From IMG/VR virus record IMGVR_UViG_3300005841_000939: a DNA stretch of 64,000 bases. One strand, given 5' to 3'. Positions 7,065 to 61,032 of the stretch are shown here, one piece after another. Under the pieces are notes generated by a model. That model was not told where the DNA came from. It saw only the letters and a list, made by a program, of their open reading frames with translations, and searched no databases. The stretch's first letter is position 1. Each line of letters begins with the position of its first letter. The translations under genes were made by a program, and so were the position numbers. The stretch comes from a virus (lineage: Duplodnaviria > Caudoviricetes).

Positions 7065-7864
7065 AGAACTACTTCGGTCCACAAAGTGGTATCGGAGATA
7101 AGGCAGTATATTTAGCTGAAAAACCATTTGTAACCATTCAGGGTGAAGGTCCAAATGCTGGTAAGAATACAATTTTCATCAGATTTTTTGGTTGTAACCT
7201 AGCAAATAGTTGCGGTGTTGATTGGTGTGATTCGGGTCACTCATTCTATACTGACAACGAATTAAAGAAGGATCCTATAACTGGTAATCCAACAGAATAT
7301 CCACCAAAACCTGATCGTTTGACGTATGCATCGGTTGAAAAATTTTGTGAAGTTATTTTTGAATTGGATTCAATCGCCAAATTTAATAATATTGTATTTA
7401 CGGGTGGTGAACCTTTATTGTGGCAGATGACTATTGCAAAAATTCTTGGCTATCTCAAGAATCAATATAATAGAACAGTAACTGTTGAAATAGAAACAAA
7501 TGGAACTATTCAAATTGAACCAGAATTAACTGATTGGTTTAGAATGGTACATTTCAATATTTCTCCAAAAGTACACGTTGTTAAGAAGTTTCCACTTGTT
7601 GAACAACTATCAACAAAAACGTTTGATCATGACGATTGGATCATAAAATTCGTTTATGAAGATGATGAAACCGAAGATCAAATTGCAAGTTTTATTAAAA
7701 AGTATGACATTGAAAACCATAAGGTTTATATAATGCCAGAAGGTATTACTACCGAAGTTCAAATTAAAAAAATGCAACCTATAGCAGAATGGTGTATTAA
7801 CAAGGGTTATAATTTTAGTCCAAGACTTCACGTACTTATTTGGAATTTAGCTAAAGGCATCTGA
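7061..7864 (+). CDS. queE: 7-carboxy-7-deazaguanine synthase QueE-like radical SAM enzyme
   Basis: TIQGEG..G..TIFIRFFGCN, VFTGGEPLL, IETNGT, ISPK, C-terminal PRLHVLIW. Cys spacing is atypical (CX5CX4C). Confidence 0.8.
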   Translation: MKNYFGPQSGIGDKAVYLAEKPFVTIQGEGPNAGKNTIFIRFFGCNLANSCGVDWCDSGHSFYTDNELKKDPITGNPTEYPPKPDRLTYASVEKFCEVIFELDSIAKFNNIVFTGGEPLLWQMTIAKILGYLKNQYNRTVTVEIETNGTIQIEPELTDWFRMVHFNISPKVHVVKKFPLVEQLSTKTFDHDDWIIKFVYEDDETEDQIASFIKKYDIENHKVYIMPEGITTEVQIKKMQPIAEWCINKGYNFSPRLHVLIWNLAKGI

Positions 7865-9211: not shown

Positions 9212-10054
9212 ATGACCAATATTGTCTTTATTCAACCAATTTTTGCACCAGATGAGGGCATATCGGAGAGAAATGTAAATTCTCTTCAATCTATTAAAAA
9301 TTATATTGATGTGAATGGCCTAGATGGTTGCAATGTTCAGGTGATCATTGGTGGATGGGCTAGAACCGATGCATTGTGGCAAAAAATGGTAGCAAAATGT
9401 AAAGAAGTATTTGGTGCAACATACGAACCAATCCGATTTGATAAGAATTATGGTAAAGCAATAGTTGTTAATAAGCTTTATGAAGTTGCTCGCAAAAATG
9501 GTGTAAATCCTGATTTCTTGTTTACATGTGATTCAGATATTCTTTTTCAACCTGAACAAAAACATATGTTTTTGCGTTTAGTGGCAGCAGCTAATCATTT
9601 AACAGAAGTTAAAAAGATTCCATTTGGAATGATTTCATTAAATCAACTTTCTGGTAATTGTCATTGGCCAGTGTGCTATCAAAATCAGATTACATATACA
9701 ATGTCAGTTAATGCGACTGAAAAATTTGAAGAAAAAATGGTTTGGCCAAATACACCAAGTGGAATTGCTGGCGGCTGTCTCTTTTTAAGTCGCGCTTTTT
9801 GGGATACAGTTGGTGGATATAAAGTATTTGGCGTATATTCTGGTGATGATGCATATTTACTTTTAGAATGTGGAAAACGTGGTTGGTCATATCAAATGGC
9901 TGATACAATTTCAATTATCCATCCAAATGAAAATGATGCAGAATATTCAGCTTGGAAGCACAAAGTCTGTGGTCGTGATATGATGTCAGGATTTAAACAA
10001 AATATTGATAATATCATTCAAGAAGCAGATGCATTTTGGGATGCAAAGAAATGA
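9212..10054 (+). CDS. Glycosyltransferase, GT-A fold (GT2-like)
   Basis: NYGKA, DSD motif, IAGGCLFL...VGGY...YSGDD. Confidence 0.7.
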   Translation: MTNIVFIQPIFAPDEGISERNVNSLQSIKNYIDVNGLDGCNVQVIIGGWARTDALWQKMVAKCKEVFGATYEPIRFDKNYGKAIVVNKLYEVARKNGVNPDFLFTCDSDILFQPEQKHMFLRLVAAANHLTEVKKIPFGMISLNQLSGNCHWPVCYQNQITYTMSVNATEKFEEKMVWPNTPSGIAGGCLFLSRAFWDTVGGYKVFGVYSGDDAYLLLECGKRGWSYQMADTISIIHPNENDAEYSAWKHKVCGRDMMSGFKQNIDNIIQEADAFWDAKK

Positions 10055-10671
10055 AAATAGCAATCGTATGCAATGGATGGAAATGTCGTTTGAAAGAAAA
10101 TGGTACATTCATTGATTCATGTGATTATGTCATTCGCATGAATAGATTTAATTTAGAAGGATTTGAAAAATACGTTGGATCTAAAACAAGTGCAGTATCA
10201 CTAATGATAACTGGTGAAGGAACAACATCTGGAATTCTTGGACATGATCCTTTATTAAAATATGTACCAGACGCCAAACATATTTGGATTCCTGACAAAT
10301 ATCGTGCAGAGCATCAGCATCAAAGAAATAGGGCAGCGGATCATTATCGTAAATCATTAGATGATTTTTTATTTGTTGATGGCATAGTTTATGACAGACT
10401 TTATAATAAGATGCAATCATTATCTGAGGGTAAAGGTGTTAGACGAGAATGGTATTATCCTGATTCAGGGATGACTAATATAGAAACAGCTTTATATAGA
10501 TTTCCTAATTCACAAATATTTGTTTTTGGATTTGATCCTCATCGCAAACATCCATACAAATATTATTGGGACAACAGTGAAGATGGTTTTGCTGAAAATG
10601 AACATCCACAAGTAGCGGAATCAATTTTGTTTGATGAATATATAGAAAAGGGTTTAGTTCATGAGCTTTGA
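10051..10671 (+). CDS. GT29 (sialyltransferase)-like glycosyltransferase
   Basis: Sialylmotif-L-like IAIVCNG...IDSCDYVIRMN, motif-S-like PDSG...FVFGFD, motif-VS-like HPQVAE. Confidence 0.6.
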   Translation: MKIAIVCNGWKCRLKENGTFIDSCDYVIRMNRFNLEGFEKYVGSKTSAVSLMITGEGTTSGILGHDPLLKYVPDAKHIWIPDKYRAEHQHQRNRAADHYRKSLDDFLFVDGIVYDRLYNKMQSLSEGKGVRREWYYPDSGMTNIETALYRFPNSQIFVFGFDPHRKHPYKYYWDNSEDGFAENEHPQVAESILFDEYIEKGLVHEL

Positions 10672-22591: not shown

Positions 22592-22599
22592 TATAAATA
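22592..22599 (+). promoter_or_regulatory. T4-type late promoter consensus TATAAATA
   Basis: Exact match in an intergenic gap; the only copy I noticed; could arise by chance in AT-rich DNA. Confidence 0.35.
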
Positions 22600-24881: not shown

Positions 24882-25219
24882 AAGTTATCATTGCAGGAAA
24901 AAGAGATTATTATAAATATGAAGCTGTCCAAGAAGCAGTTAAGGCGAGTGGATTTGTAATAACTGAAGAAGTTTCTGGTGCTGCATCTGGTGTTGATGCT
25001 TTGGGTGAAAAATGGGCCAAAGATAATAACGTCCCTATCAAACGTTTTCCTGCCGATTGGGGTAAGAATGGTAAAGCTGCTGGACCTATTCGTAATAAAC
25101 AAATGGCAGATTATGCGGAAGCATTAATTGCCCTTTGGGATGGTAATAGTAAGGGTACAGCTAACATGATTATGCAAGCAAGAAATGCTGGACTAAAAGT
25201 TTTCGTCTATAAAATATGA
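24878..25219 (+). CDS. SLOG-family protein (DUF2493/YspA-like)
   Basis: VIIAGKR, VSGAASGVD, ADW..NGKAAGPIRNKQM, WDGNSKGT. Confidence 0.85.
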   Translation: MKVIIAGKRDYYKYEAVQEAVKASGFVITEEVSGAASGVDALGEKWAKDNNVPIKRFPADWGKNGKAAGPIRNKQMADYAEALIALWDGNSKGTANMIMQARNAGLKVFVYKI

Positions 25220-29305: not shown

Positions 29306-29793
29306 ACAACACCATGATAGAAACAAAAGAAAATTCCCAAATACAACTTGGTAGAATAGAAAAACCAACAACAATTATTCAATTTACAACAGAAACACTT
29401 ACACCAAAATTTTTCCATTATGTAAAAGATGCAACTAGATTGCATGCATATGAATGTGTTAATACAAAGTGCTATTTGTGTGATAAAGCTAAAGAATTAA
29501 TTCGGTCGCAAAACTATATTGAACGTGATGAAGGTAAAATGCTTTTTAGAAAAGCAACAACCTACGCTGATGTAAAAATTGATGGCAAGTTGATTAAACT
29601 TCGCATACCTAATCCAATTGTTAGGCTGATTGATAAAACTTTAATCAGAAATGATTACAATAAGTTTAGAAAGACTTTATTGAATAAAAAGAAATTTGTT
29701 ATTCTTATGGATCGTTCTCATGGCCCATATCCTGAATATACTGGATATTTCTTAAACCGTGATGGTACTAGATTCAAAGGTCGTTCAGAATGA
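29302..29793 (+). CDS. Hypothetical protein, possibly gp32/SSB-like Zn-binding OB-fold fragment
   Basis: H...C....CYLC and G.YPEY pattern; weak resemblance only. Confidence 0.3.
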   Translation: MNNTMIETKENSQIQLGRIEKPTTIIQFTTETLTPKFFHYVKDATRLHAYECVNTKCYLCDKAKELIRSQNYIERDEGKMLFRKATTYADVKIDGKLIKLRIPNPIVRLIDKTLIRNDYNKFRKTLLNKKKFVILMDRSHGPYPEYTGYFLNRDGTRFKGRSE

Positions 29794-51612: not shown

Positions 51613-51804
51613 ATGAGCGAAAACTCTAAAAACCGATATATTGAATTGGCTATAAAATGGGCTGATTGTGCGCAGACCGATGACGATGAATGGATGAGTG
51701 ATGAATTGGATATGATTTGGGATAACCAATTGACAGATCAAGAACGTGACGATATAACTTTTGGCTGGAATAATAACACATGGGACAAGACAAAACAACG
51801 CTAG
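51613..51804 (+). CDS. Small acidic hypothetical protein (ends in TAG)
   Basis: 63-aa ORF. Confidence 0.55.
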   Translation: MSENSKNRYIELAIKWADCAQTDDDEWMSDELDMIWDNQLTDQERDDITFGWNNNTWDKTKQR

Positions 51805-58749: not shown

Positions 58750-59172
58750 ATGAGCAGCAACCACGGTGCTGACACTGCCCGCGTTATGGATGACATGCGT
58801 CGTCAAACCAAGAAGAAGCAAGCCAAGAAGACCGTGATCGCCGGCAAGGCTGAATTGGAAGATGTCCGTCTTCCTACGACTCTCAATGCCAAGTTCGGCG
58901 GTGCGACTGCTGCAAGCATCGCTGAATTCTTCAAGGAAAATCCTTCCCAAATGATCACGACGGACGATATCCGTCAACGTTTCGTGAAGGGTGAAACCAT
59001 CTACGTCGAAGGTACCGACGACTTCCTGCCAACTCTCAAGGGTACGGTCATCGCTATCACCAAGGATGGCATCGATTCTCCTCTCACTCTCTACCAGGTC
59101 AACGTCTGGCTTGGTGGTGGTTTCGGTCTGATCTTCAACAAGGATCGGTACGGAAAAGTCTACATCTACTAA
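58750..59172 (+). CDS. Hypothetical protein with strongly biased (C-ending) codons
   Basis: GGAG RBS; basic N-terminus and beta-rich C-terminus. Confidence 0.8.
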   Translation: MSSNHGADTARVMDDMRRQTKKKQAKKTVIAGKAELEDVRLPTTLNAKFGGATAASIAEFFKENPSQMITTDDIRQRFVKGETIYVEGTDDFLPTLKGTVIAITKDGIDSPLTLYQVNVWLGGGFGLIFNKDRYGKVYIY

Positions 59173-59177
59173 GGAAT

Positions 59178-59253
59178 GCCCTCGTAGCTTAGCGGTCTAA
59201 AGCTCCGGATTCTAAACCCGGCATCGTGGGTTCGACTCCCACCGAGGGCACCA
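59178..59253 (+). tRNA. tRNA with CUA anticodon (amber suppressor-like), CCA encoded
   Basis: Acceptor GCCCTCG/CGAGGGC+A+CCA; D stem GCTT/AAGC; anticodon arm CCGGA-TTCTAAA-CCCGG (one A.C mismatch); T arm GTGGG-TTCGACT-CCCAC; 76 nt. Confidence 0.88.
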
Positions 59254-59274: not shown

Positions 59275-60135
59275 ATGGTCTACAACATTCTTTCATTGAA
59301 CGGTGGTGGGACATCAGGTCTCATCACCGCTGTTATTTTATCACATCTTGAAGAAGAAACTGGTAAAAAATCTTCGGAACTATTTGACTTGATTGCGGGT
59401 ATATCAACTGGATCAATTATTGGCGGTTGTATTTCGCATGGAATGTCAGGCAAAGATGTTGTTGACATGTATAAAGAAATGATTCCAAAAATATTTGTCA
59501 AACCAGCTTATGCTTGGCAAATTTGGAAGCCAAAATATAATGCCGAAGTATTTGAAGATATTTTGATGCAATATTTGGATTATCCACTAAATCAAACAAG
59601 AACAAAATTTATGGCACATGCTGTGCAAATAAATGGTGAAAAGATTGCTACAAAGTTTTGGAAAAGTTGGCAAGATGATAATATCCGTACATGGCGAGTA
59701 GTGAGAGCATCTGCCGCAGCACCAACATATTTTGAGCCTGCTTGTATTGATGGAGACTATTATGTTGATGGTGCAGTTTGTGCAAATAACCCATCAACAT
59801 GCGCTTTGGCAGAAGCCGTTAAAATGGGACAAACTTTTGATAACACATATATTTTAAATTTAGCATGTACATCAAGTCCAGGTTATCAAGATGCTTCAAA
59901 GATAAAAGGTCTATGGCAATGGGGATTGCGCATTGCAACTATTTGGGTCAACACTTCTGATCCGTTAGTTGATTATCAATGCCAAGAATTCCTTGGTGAT
60001 AATTTCTATTCAGTTAATCCAAATTCCGCAAAAGCGGTAGACTTTCCTGATATTAATATCCTTATTGCTCTTGGCGATAAGCTATGGGCGCAGCATAAGA
60101 AAAATATCTTGAAAAACATTCAACATAAGCTATAA
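59275..60135 (+). CDS. Patatin-like phospholipase
   Basis: LSLNGGG..G, GISTG nucleophile elbow, ASAAAPTYF, DG...ANNP. Confidence 0.88.
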   Translation: MVYNILSLNGGGTSGLITAVILSHLEEETGKKSSELFDLIAGISTGSIIGGCISHGMSGKDVVDMYKEMIPKIFVKPAYAWQIWKPKYNAEVFEDILMQYLDYPLNQTRTKFMAHAVQINGEKIATKFWKSWQDDNIRTWRVVRASAAAPTYFEPACIDGDYYVDGAVCANNPSTCALAEAVKMGQTFDNTYILNLACTSSPGYQDASKIKGLWQWGLRIATIWVNTSDPLVDYQCQEFLGDNFYSVNPNSAKAVDFPDINILIALGDKLWAQHKKNILKNIQHKL

Positions 60136-60705: not shown

Positions 60706-61032
60706 ATGCTTAAATGTTTTGTTATTATCCGTAAGGATATCCTATCAGCGGTTCAATGTGGTGTGCAAGGTGCACACGCATTGGCCGAACTGGTGTCAAT
60801 CAAAGATGAAATTCCTGCTGTAGATGATTGGGTCAAGCATCACAAGACCCTGATTTTCTTGGCAGGTACTGATGAAGATTTTGCAAATGCAAAAGTGCTT
60901 TATCATCGGCATGGATTAAAGTATGCTGATTTCCTTGAGCCCGATCTTGGAAATATTATCACAGCAACGGCTTTTGAGCCGATTGATCGTGAACTCGGCA
61001 AGAAAATCTTCGGACATTTGAAGCTCATATGA
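60706..61032 (+). CDS. PTH2-like protein (divergent)
   Basis: CFVIIRKDI...VQGAHALAE, W...HKTLI, FLEPDL...TATAFEP, FGHLKLI. Confidence 0.7.
   Translation: MLKCFVIIRKDILSAVQCGVQGAHALAELVSIKDEIPAVDDWVKHHKTLIFLAGTDEDFANAKVLYHRHGLKYADFLEPDLGNIITATAFEPIDRELGKKIFGHLKLI

Follow-up and report, generated by a model that had tools for sequence, protein, structure and literature searches.

A conserved CUA tRNA as a candidate UAG-decoding suppressor in a standard-code T4-like jumbo phage with few TAG stops

Introduction

Why should a phage encode a tRNA whose anticodon matches a stop codon, and what would such a tRNA be used for? The question is raised by a single tRNA gene in IMG/VR virus record IMGVR_UViG_3300005841_000939, from which a stretch of 64,000 nucleotides (the window) was analysed. 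A preliminary description, made from the letters alone, had proposed that this gene encodes a suppressor-type tRNA of uncertain amino-acid identity, with an anticodon arm resembling that of tRNA-Gln and with amber readthrough or partial recoding elsewhere in the genome as its possible purpose. Here we examine the tRNA itself, its neighbourhood and relatives, the amino acid it is likely to carry and the stop codons of the phage that encodes it.

The tRNA and its fold

Two features define the locus:

59178..59253, + strand: tRNA of 76 nt with a CUA anticodon (amber suppressor type) and an encoded CCA, supported by ARAGORN, by Rfam RF00005 and by syntenic CUA tRNAs in three related contigs (L006, L007 and L008)
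59212..59214, + strand: anticodon CTA within the loop TT-CTA-AA, a loop invariant across four related phages

The canonical 76-nt cloverleaf first described, with CTA at 59212-14, U33 and a purine at 37, is borne out by all three ways of looking at it. ARAGORN calls a tRNA at 59178-59253 on the + strand, with anticodon cta at position 35, as the sole tRNA of the 64-kb window; Rfam RF00005 matches with 64.4 bits against a gathering score of 29 (E=1.1e-11) and is covered over the full model; and direct reading of the sequence agrees. The acceptor stem has 7 bp (GCCCTCG/CGAGGGC, with pairs G1-C72, C2-G71, C3-G70 and C4-G69) and the 3' end consists of discriminator A73 followed by the encoded CCA. 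The D stem has 4 bp and a D loop AGCGGTCTA, the variable loop has 4 nt and the T loop, TTCGACT, is canonical. The nucleotides needed for tertiary interactions are all present (U8, A14, G18G19, T54-A58, C56 and G53-C61). In the anticodon arm a 7-nt loop (T32 T33 C34 T35 A36 A37 A38, with U33 and a purine at 37) is carried on the stem CCGGA/CCCGG, in which the closing pair 31-39 is an A.C mismatch that might weaken the stem.

Two other assignments of this tRNA were considered and rejected. A register shifted so as to give Arg(UCU), which the preliminary description had named among the outcomes that would speak against it, has no supporting alternative stem pairing: the covariance model and ARAGORN both put CUA in the canonical register, and in the relative L008 the identical loop is closed by five perfect stem pairs. 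The second assignment is tRNA-Pyl, the label printed by ARAGORN. tRNA-Pyl has a short D loop without G18G19, a 3-nt variable loop, a 6-bp anticodon stem and no T54-psi55-C56. The window tRNA has ordinary D and T loops and an anticodon stem of five positions, and the label reflects only the CUA anticodon.

The same CTA tRNA occurs in L003, an assembly made independently (Logan) from a public rhizosphere run, in which 14.9 kb match at 99.993% identity; this shows that the anticodon is not an assembly slip, and reads or contigs of three rhizosphere runs confirm the sequence. Searches of IMG/VR and JGI metagenomes with exact and anticodon-masked patterns of the tRNA, the phage's own records being excluded, gave 0 matches, and blastn of the tRNA against E. 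coli genomes gave no match.

The phage and the genes around the tRNA

The IMG/VR record is 89,295 nt long with 33.7% GC; it is labelled as a 'provirus' cut, with a completeness of 42% by CheckV. Among contigs that encode the window's own proteins, the longest measures 379,560 nt, and the record appears to be a cut from a ~380-kb T4-like jumbo phage contig, the 'provirus' label being probably a boundary-calling artefact. Its gp43-type DNA polymerase is only ~31% identical to T4-like cyanophage gp43, marking the phage as a deep-branching T4-like virus, and a megablast search with 4 kb found no nucleotide-level relative in the GenBank phage collection. The sequence was found in runs of rhizosphere metagenomes, and in no RNA run. 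The readable 89 kb contain genes for replication, glycan, NAD and RNA repair, and no virion genes.

The order of genes on the + strand is NUDIX, arginase-family, a 140-aa protein, the tRNA, a patatin-like lipase, an unknown gene, a PTH2-like gene, a further unknown gene and an NAD-dependent DNA ligase. Those of most concern here are:

58750..59172, + strand: gene for the 140-aa protein, with a TAA stop 5 nt upstream of the tRNA; the orthologues of three relatives have TAG stops
59275..60135, + strand: patatin-like phospholipase gene (Pfam PF01734, E=5e-24), beginning 21 nt after the tRNA and in frame with the 140-aa gene
60706..61032, + strand: PTH2-like peptidyl-tRNA hydrolase gene, 1.45 kb downstream of the tRNA on the same strand (Pfam PF01981, 24.7 bits with a cut-off of 23; phrog_3668 hydrolase)

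The 140-aa protein has no Pfam or PHROG match, and its AlphaFold model, built on a 5-sequence alignment, is unusable (pLDDT 51). IMG/VR scans with this protein and the arginase-family protein singly, and with a profile of the 140-aa family, returned no relatives; the profile scan of metagenomes returned only two distant contigs. In two distant metagenome contigs, family members (L009 3290-3697 and L010 10001-10090) lie ~2 kb from tRNA arrays. The family has ~20 distant homologues and no known domain, and none of the distant homologues lies next to a suppressor tRNA. Its N-terminus (58750-58840 in the window) is highly conserved, with the motif MSS(N/Y)HGADTA(K/R)VM(D/N)DMRRQTK.

Two genes separate the tRNA from the PTH2-like gene at 60706, which is one of three such genes in the window (starts 29790, 52525 and 60706). 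A CUA tRNA with a PTH2-like gene nearby is found in L007 also, and in two unrelated jumbo-phage contigs, L304 (a 415-kb JGI contig from a lineage of ~40% GC; loci 7144-7600 and 10001-10363) and L305 (7299-7762 and 10001-10363). In these two, the PTH2-like homologue is 52% identical to that of the window and has the CUA tRNA 2.4 kb upstream, with dispersed tRNA genes around. Gating of the PTH2-like genes by TAG was considered as a use for the tRNA and rejected, there being no in-frame TAG in the genes at 29790, 52525 or 60706 or in that at L007 2030, when their starts were read directly, nor in the L304 and L305 orthologues.

One further observation concerns the T4 late-promoter octamer TATAAATA, which occurs only twice in the 64-kb window (22592-22599 and 24911-24918) where 8.4 occurrences are expected. 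In L006 and L008 the interval from the tRNA to the patatin gene contains an exact TATAAATA, at which place CATAAATA is found in the window and in L007.

Conservation in relatives

Three homologues of the 140-aa flanking protein, with 54-58% identity, were found on short metagenome contigs (L006 and L007 from JGI, L008 from ENA). All three share the synteny of the window: an arginase gene, a 139-aa gene, a 135-nt gap and a patatin gene, with a tRNA(cta) called by ARAGORN in each gap. The window tRNA is 71-78% identical to these three. Across the four tRNAs the loop TTCTAAA, the pairs from G1-C72 to C4-G69 and A73 with CCA are invariant, whilst 7 of the 20 consensus pairs have changed on both strands with pairing preserved, these compensatory changes lying in the acceptor, D and T stems. 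An invariant loop combined with compensatory stem changes in diverged relatives implies that the tRNA is under selection. Judged by this pattern of substitution, the CUA tRNA is a functional RNA in which the anticodon itself is conserved.

Could the gene nonetheless be a decaying or neutral copy of a former tRNA-Arg or tRNA-Lys gene, its anticodon having drifted to CUA? The anticodon stems give some grounds for the idea, with A.C at 31-39 in both the window tRNA and L007 and U.C at 30-40 in L006 (L008 has no mismatch), as does the finding, described below, that the readable 89 kb holds no target for the tRNA. Drift would nevertheless have had to leave the gene at the same locus, with compensated stems and an unchanged loop, in lineages whose neighbouring protein is only ~55% identical, and it would leave the strong and TAG-specific depletion of stop codons described below without explanation. 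We regard decay as very improbable.

The T loop of the three relatives is unusual. It reads ATCGTTC, with A54 and U58 in place of T54-A58, and the same loop or ATCGTAG is found in phage tRNAs of several isotypes, including tRNA-Ile in L214, L223 and L234, tRNA-Val in L275 and tRNA-Pro in L010 (7869-7945). The tRNA-Ile(GAT) of L223 is nearly identical to the L007 suppressor in its acceptor, D and T arms. Departures from the canonical form are also seen in the tRNA-Arg(CCT) of several phage contigs of 110-205 kb (L011, L014 and L019-L022, from IMG/VR sample 3300045988 and others): its acceptor stem (GCCCTTG / CTTGGGT) contains two T.T mismatches, and ACTA follows in place of ACCA.

The tRNA body and the likely amino acid

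E. coli supE is a tRNA-Gln with a CUA anticodon, built on the glnV scaffold. The resemblance to tRNA-Gln noted at the outset is real in the anticodon arm, where arm and variable region are identical to E. coli glnV at 18/22 positions, but does not extend to the scaffold: the whole tRNA is 63% identical to glnV, a value equalled by E. coli elongator tRNA-Met, and Gln comes near the bottom when isotypes are ranked by similarity. The acceptor end was said to lack the Gln identity elements, and here the reading of G1-C72, C2-G71, C3-G70, A73 and A38 leads to the same view, since the bacterial GlnRS identity set comprises a weak 1-72 pair, G2-C71, G3-C70, G73 and U38 (PMC9976931), none of which the window tRNA has.

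To what kind of tRNA, then, does the body belong? The four suppressors were combined into an IUPAC pattern that allowed any anticodon, and this was searched for in IMG/VR and GTDB genomes, where it matched 12 IMG/VR and at least 120 GTDB genome contigs. Among the matches listed, 132/132 were tRNA-Arg, with the anticodon CCT in 127, TCT in 3 and CCG in 2. When the anticodon arm was freed as well, the matches in IMG/VR were mostly Arg (83/121), followed by Thr (15), Lys (7), Val (4) and Ile (3), together with two further CUA tRNAs. Best identities to 1,060 ARAGORN-labelled tRNAs were 0.78-0.81 for Arg, 0.73-0.76 for Thr, 0.73-0.76 for Lys and 0.61-0.66 for Gln, a ranking that is supportive rather than decisive because the collection is by its making enriched in Arg.

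The suppressors depart from this Arg background at two positions. A20, directly after G19, is present in 132/132 of the matching Arg tRNAs listed; all four suppressors have U20 and U35. A20 and C35 are the main bacterial ArgRS determinants (PMC9976931), and with both absent arginylation is unlikely. From the sequence comparisons, the body is that of a tRNA-Arg-like molecule, closest to tRNA-Arg (CCU/UCU), with its Arg identity apparently erased and its likeness to tRNA-Gln confined to one arm. A suppressor made by removing A20 and C35 from an Arg-type body would have arisen through the loss of one identity, without mutation of a tRNA for Gln or Trp.

In CUA suppressors, U35 leads to the insertion of Lys, to which A73 contributes, and changing A73 to G73 shifts insertion toward Gln (PMC9976931). 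Suppressors that insert Gln typically have a weakened 1-72 pair (PMC9976931), and the 31-39 pair influences whether LysRS or GlnRS prevails (PMC1483225). By these E. coli identity rules, A73, U35 and the stable G1-C72 pair would make Lys the likeliest charge and Gln the second guess. No release-factor, GlnRS/GluRS or class IIb synthetase domain was found in the readable 89 kb. The default assumption that TAG means Gln should not be applied automatically.

A body nearest to tRNA-Arg and yet lacking A20 and C35 might also be expected of an RNA that does not decode at all, serving instead as a decoy or competitor for the tRNA-cleaving defences of the host or as a processing signal within the operon. 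The RNA-repair genes and the three PTH2-like genes do suggest a conflict over tRNAs. A decoy, however, need not keep CUA, and here the 7-nt loop is invariant in four diverged phages in which every stem has changed; moreover, nothing required for use on the ribosome is missing (G18G19, the encoded CCA, A36-A37-A38 and, in the window copy, T54-A58 are all there). A non-decoding role thus seems to us quite improbable.

Genetic code and stop codon usage

If UAG were a sense codon in this phage, genes interrupted by TAG should be apparent. A greedy set of open reading frames (ORFs) was drawn up over 89 of the ~380 kb, with TAG read either as stop or as sense. Under code 11, 122 ORFs cover 95.7% of the 89 kb and reading TAG as sense gains nothing, so that the partial recoding initially put forward receives no support from coding density in this part of the genome. 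We also screened every frame of at least 80 codons bounded by TAA or TGA that holds a TAG, and found no in-frame TAG in a real gene anywhere in the 89 kb. In frames not overlapped by real genes, the TAGs lie a few codons upstream of start codons; the genome is AT-rich, and chance upstream extensions that are open except for TAG do occur; instances precede the genes with starts at 10661 and 21962. Across these 89 of ~380 kb, the phage does not look like a TAG-recoded (code 15) phage.

What does stand out is the choice of stop codon. The 122 ORFs end in TAA (69), TGA (50) or TAG (3), and among those that reach 100 aa TAG is never the stop (0/100). By the same method, 100 kb of the T4-like phage P-SSM2 (35-36% GC) has TAG at the end of 24/147 ORFs and of 16/102 of those of at least 100 aa, and the difference from the window phage is significant by Fisher's test (p = 1.4e-4 for all ORFs, 1.6e-5 for those of at least 100 aa). 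The trinucleotide TAG shows no general avoidance, being present 909 times where 1038 are expected, and inside genes it is often met out of frame. Only TAG, and only as a stop, is depleted; TGA remains common, and since it is not depleted, a low GC content cannot by itself account for TAG having been lost. Such a depletion is what would be expected if UAG were read through during infection.

The three ORFs that do end in TAG are small (58, 63 and 75 aa); no family match was found for any of them, and coding scores are ordinary for two. Two of them have a backup stop close behind:

51613..51804, + strand: 63-aa ORF ending in TAG, with a backup TGA 3 codons later; called as a gene in the independent assembly L003
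52850..53077, + strand: 75-aa ORF ending in TAG, with a weak coding score and a backup TGA 11 codons later

The purge of TAG is therefore not absolute: two or three small ORFs, together with the gene next to the tRNA in the relatives, end in this codon.

A change of code confined to the part of the genome that was not read would fit some of these results. In such a scheme late genes (structural and lysis) would hold many in-frame TAGs and the tRNA would act as a switch. Recoded phages keep their replication and early genes in the standard code and recode late genes (Borges et al.; bioRxiv 10.1101/2021.08.26.457843), the readable 89 kb contains replication, glycan, NAD and RNA-repair genes with no virion genes, and TAG stops are nearly absent. 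TGA, however, is not depleted (50/122 stops), unlike the general loss of G-containing stops described for the precursors of recoding, and we consider a hidden code change improbable.

The tRNA might alternatively be a weapon. Readthrough of UAG stops in the host, in co-infecting phages or in plasmids would damage their proteomes and spare a TAG-poor phage. A TAG-poor genome, a conserved suppressor and no own target detected in 89 kb are all in keeping with this, and UAG suppression is reported to be harmful to bacteria (PMC11848022). The proposal is pure inference, though, and a phage simply shielding itself from a tRNA retained for other reasons would show the same pattern; furthermore, the relatives keep a TAG stop right beside the tRNA. 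An offensive or competitive use of this kind is unlikely, though not negligible.

A TAG stop immediately before the tRNA

The relatives' TAG stop deserves separate attention. The 139-aa gene before the tRNA ends in TAG in L006 (2012-2014), L007 (469-471) and L008 (1220-1222), and in TAA in the window (59170-59172). The same arrangement recurs further afield: in L304 and L305 a HAD-like gene ends in TAG 3 nt before the CUA tRNA, and in phage contig L220 a TAG-ending gene again directly precedes a CUA tRNA. Where an ORF ends within 60 nt upstream of the tRNA, the stop is TAG in 6/10 contigs for CUA tRNAs compared with 67/298 for other tRNAs. Counted by independent lineage the pattern is found in 3/6, which is not significant but suggestive.

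In the window, L006, L007 and L008 the patatin gene shares the frame of the upstream gene, and in 4/4 of these genomes this frame alone meets no TAA or TGA on its way through the spacer and the tRNA; this is not so in L305. A hairpin lies between the TAG and the tRNA in L006 (2015-2055), L007 (472-511) and L008 (1223-1263), with arms that differ and yet are complementary. In L006 it is followed by TTTTT and resembles an intrinsic terminator. The window has only 5 nt in this place.

These arrangements could reflect a self-referential translational circuit that recurs in jumbo phages, in which a UAG-reading tRNA lies behind a UAG-ending gene with a PTH2-like gene nearby. When the suppressor is abundant, ribosomes would pass the UAG into the tRNA precursor and, in the window's clade, could go on to reach the following gene in the one frame that lacks TAA and TGA. 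The outcome would be either feedback on the tRNA's own maturation or products that depend on suppression, and the window's phage would represent a variant in which the cis-UAG has turned to UAA. We think this decidedly unlikely as an account of the locus.

Discussion

Taken together, the evidence favours an active UAG-decoding suppressor in a standard-code jumbo phage with purged TAG stops, as in the Xanthomonas phage XacN1 considered below. We put the probability of this reading at about 60%. On this account, a functional elongator tRNA would decode UAG, and selection would maintain it within a small clade of T4-like jumbo phages of the rhizosphere, all uncultured. The tRNA would be transcribed within the co-oriented row of genes and cut from the transcript, and it would probably be charged by a host synthetase that relies on U35 and the discriminator and is not ArgRS, with Lys the most likely amino acid and Gln the next. 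We propose that TAG has been nearly eliminated as a stop because the phage's own tRNA would read through UAG. Use of the tRNA would be narrow rather than genome-wide: it may serve to translate a few UAG-bearing genes elsewhere in the genome or, alternatively, to bring about deliberate readthrough of UAG stops in the host or competitors, with the phage itself immune. That the gene encodes a genuine CUA tRNA, as the preliminary description supposed, is confirmed by ARAGORN and RF00005; we infer its expression, its charging, the amino acid inserted and its targets from sequence.

The closest published parallel is XacN1 (AP018399), a jumbo phage with two CUA tRNAs and 18 amber stops in 592 genes, for which no target has been identified (Yoshikawa et al. 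2018; PMC5852040). The likeness lies in a jumbo myovirus with a large tRNA complement, the standard code, few amber stops and CUA tRNAs without an identified target, and it extends to the tRNA itself: XacN1 provides the best blastn match to the window tRNA in the phage collection (75% over 79 nt), and the D loop AGCGGTC and a mismatch at 31-39 are common to both. There are also differences. XacN1, which infects Xanthomonas, carries two tandem copies in a tRNA array of its terminal repeats, whereas here one copy lies between metabolic genes; the window phage is a deep-branching T4-like virus, and the likeness of the tRNAs does not establish common descent. The window tRNA joins a known class of phage suppressor tRNAs.

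Laboratory amber suppressors such as supE and engineered tRNA-Arg(CUA) likewise place CUA on an ordinary type I tRNA. The window tRNA shares with supE the glnV-like anticodon arm (18/22) but differs from it in the acceptor stem and discriminator, which are unlike those of tRNA-Gln, and in its Arg-like body without A20. It differs from laboratory suppressors as a group in being a natural conserved gene and not a point mutant.

The phages that use code 15 (crAss-like, Lak and the 'Jade/Sapphire/Topaz' clades) resemble the window phage in their phage-encoded CUA tRNA, low GC and lack of gene ends in TAG. They differ in that here there is no in-frame TAG and coding density under code 11 is full over 89 kb; the window phage comes from soil and not from the gut, and its readable 89 kb contains no RF2 gene. 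In the path to recoding outlined by Borges et al., a stop codon is lost, a suppressor tRNA is gained and in-frame stops then appear, and the same authors describe a possible precursor, a single Agate phage that uses the standard code and carries a TGA suppressor (bioRxiv 10.1101/2021.08.26.457843).

A suppressor tRNA in a phage is usually read as a sign that the genetic code has changed. Here a suppressor tRNA is maintained alongside 89 kb without recoding, and the sole genomic signature is that TAG stops have been almost wholly removed while TGA stays common. The locus may represent either a stage of recoding at which the codon has been freed and the tRNA acquired but the codon not yet reassigned, or a form of suppression that is unrelated to the phage's own code.
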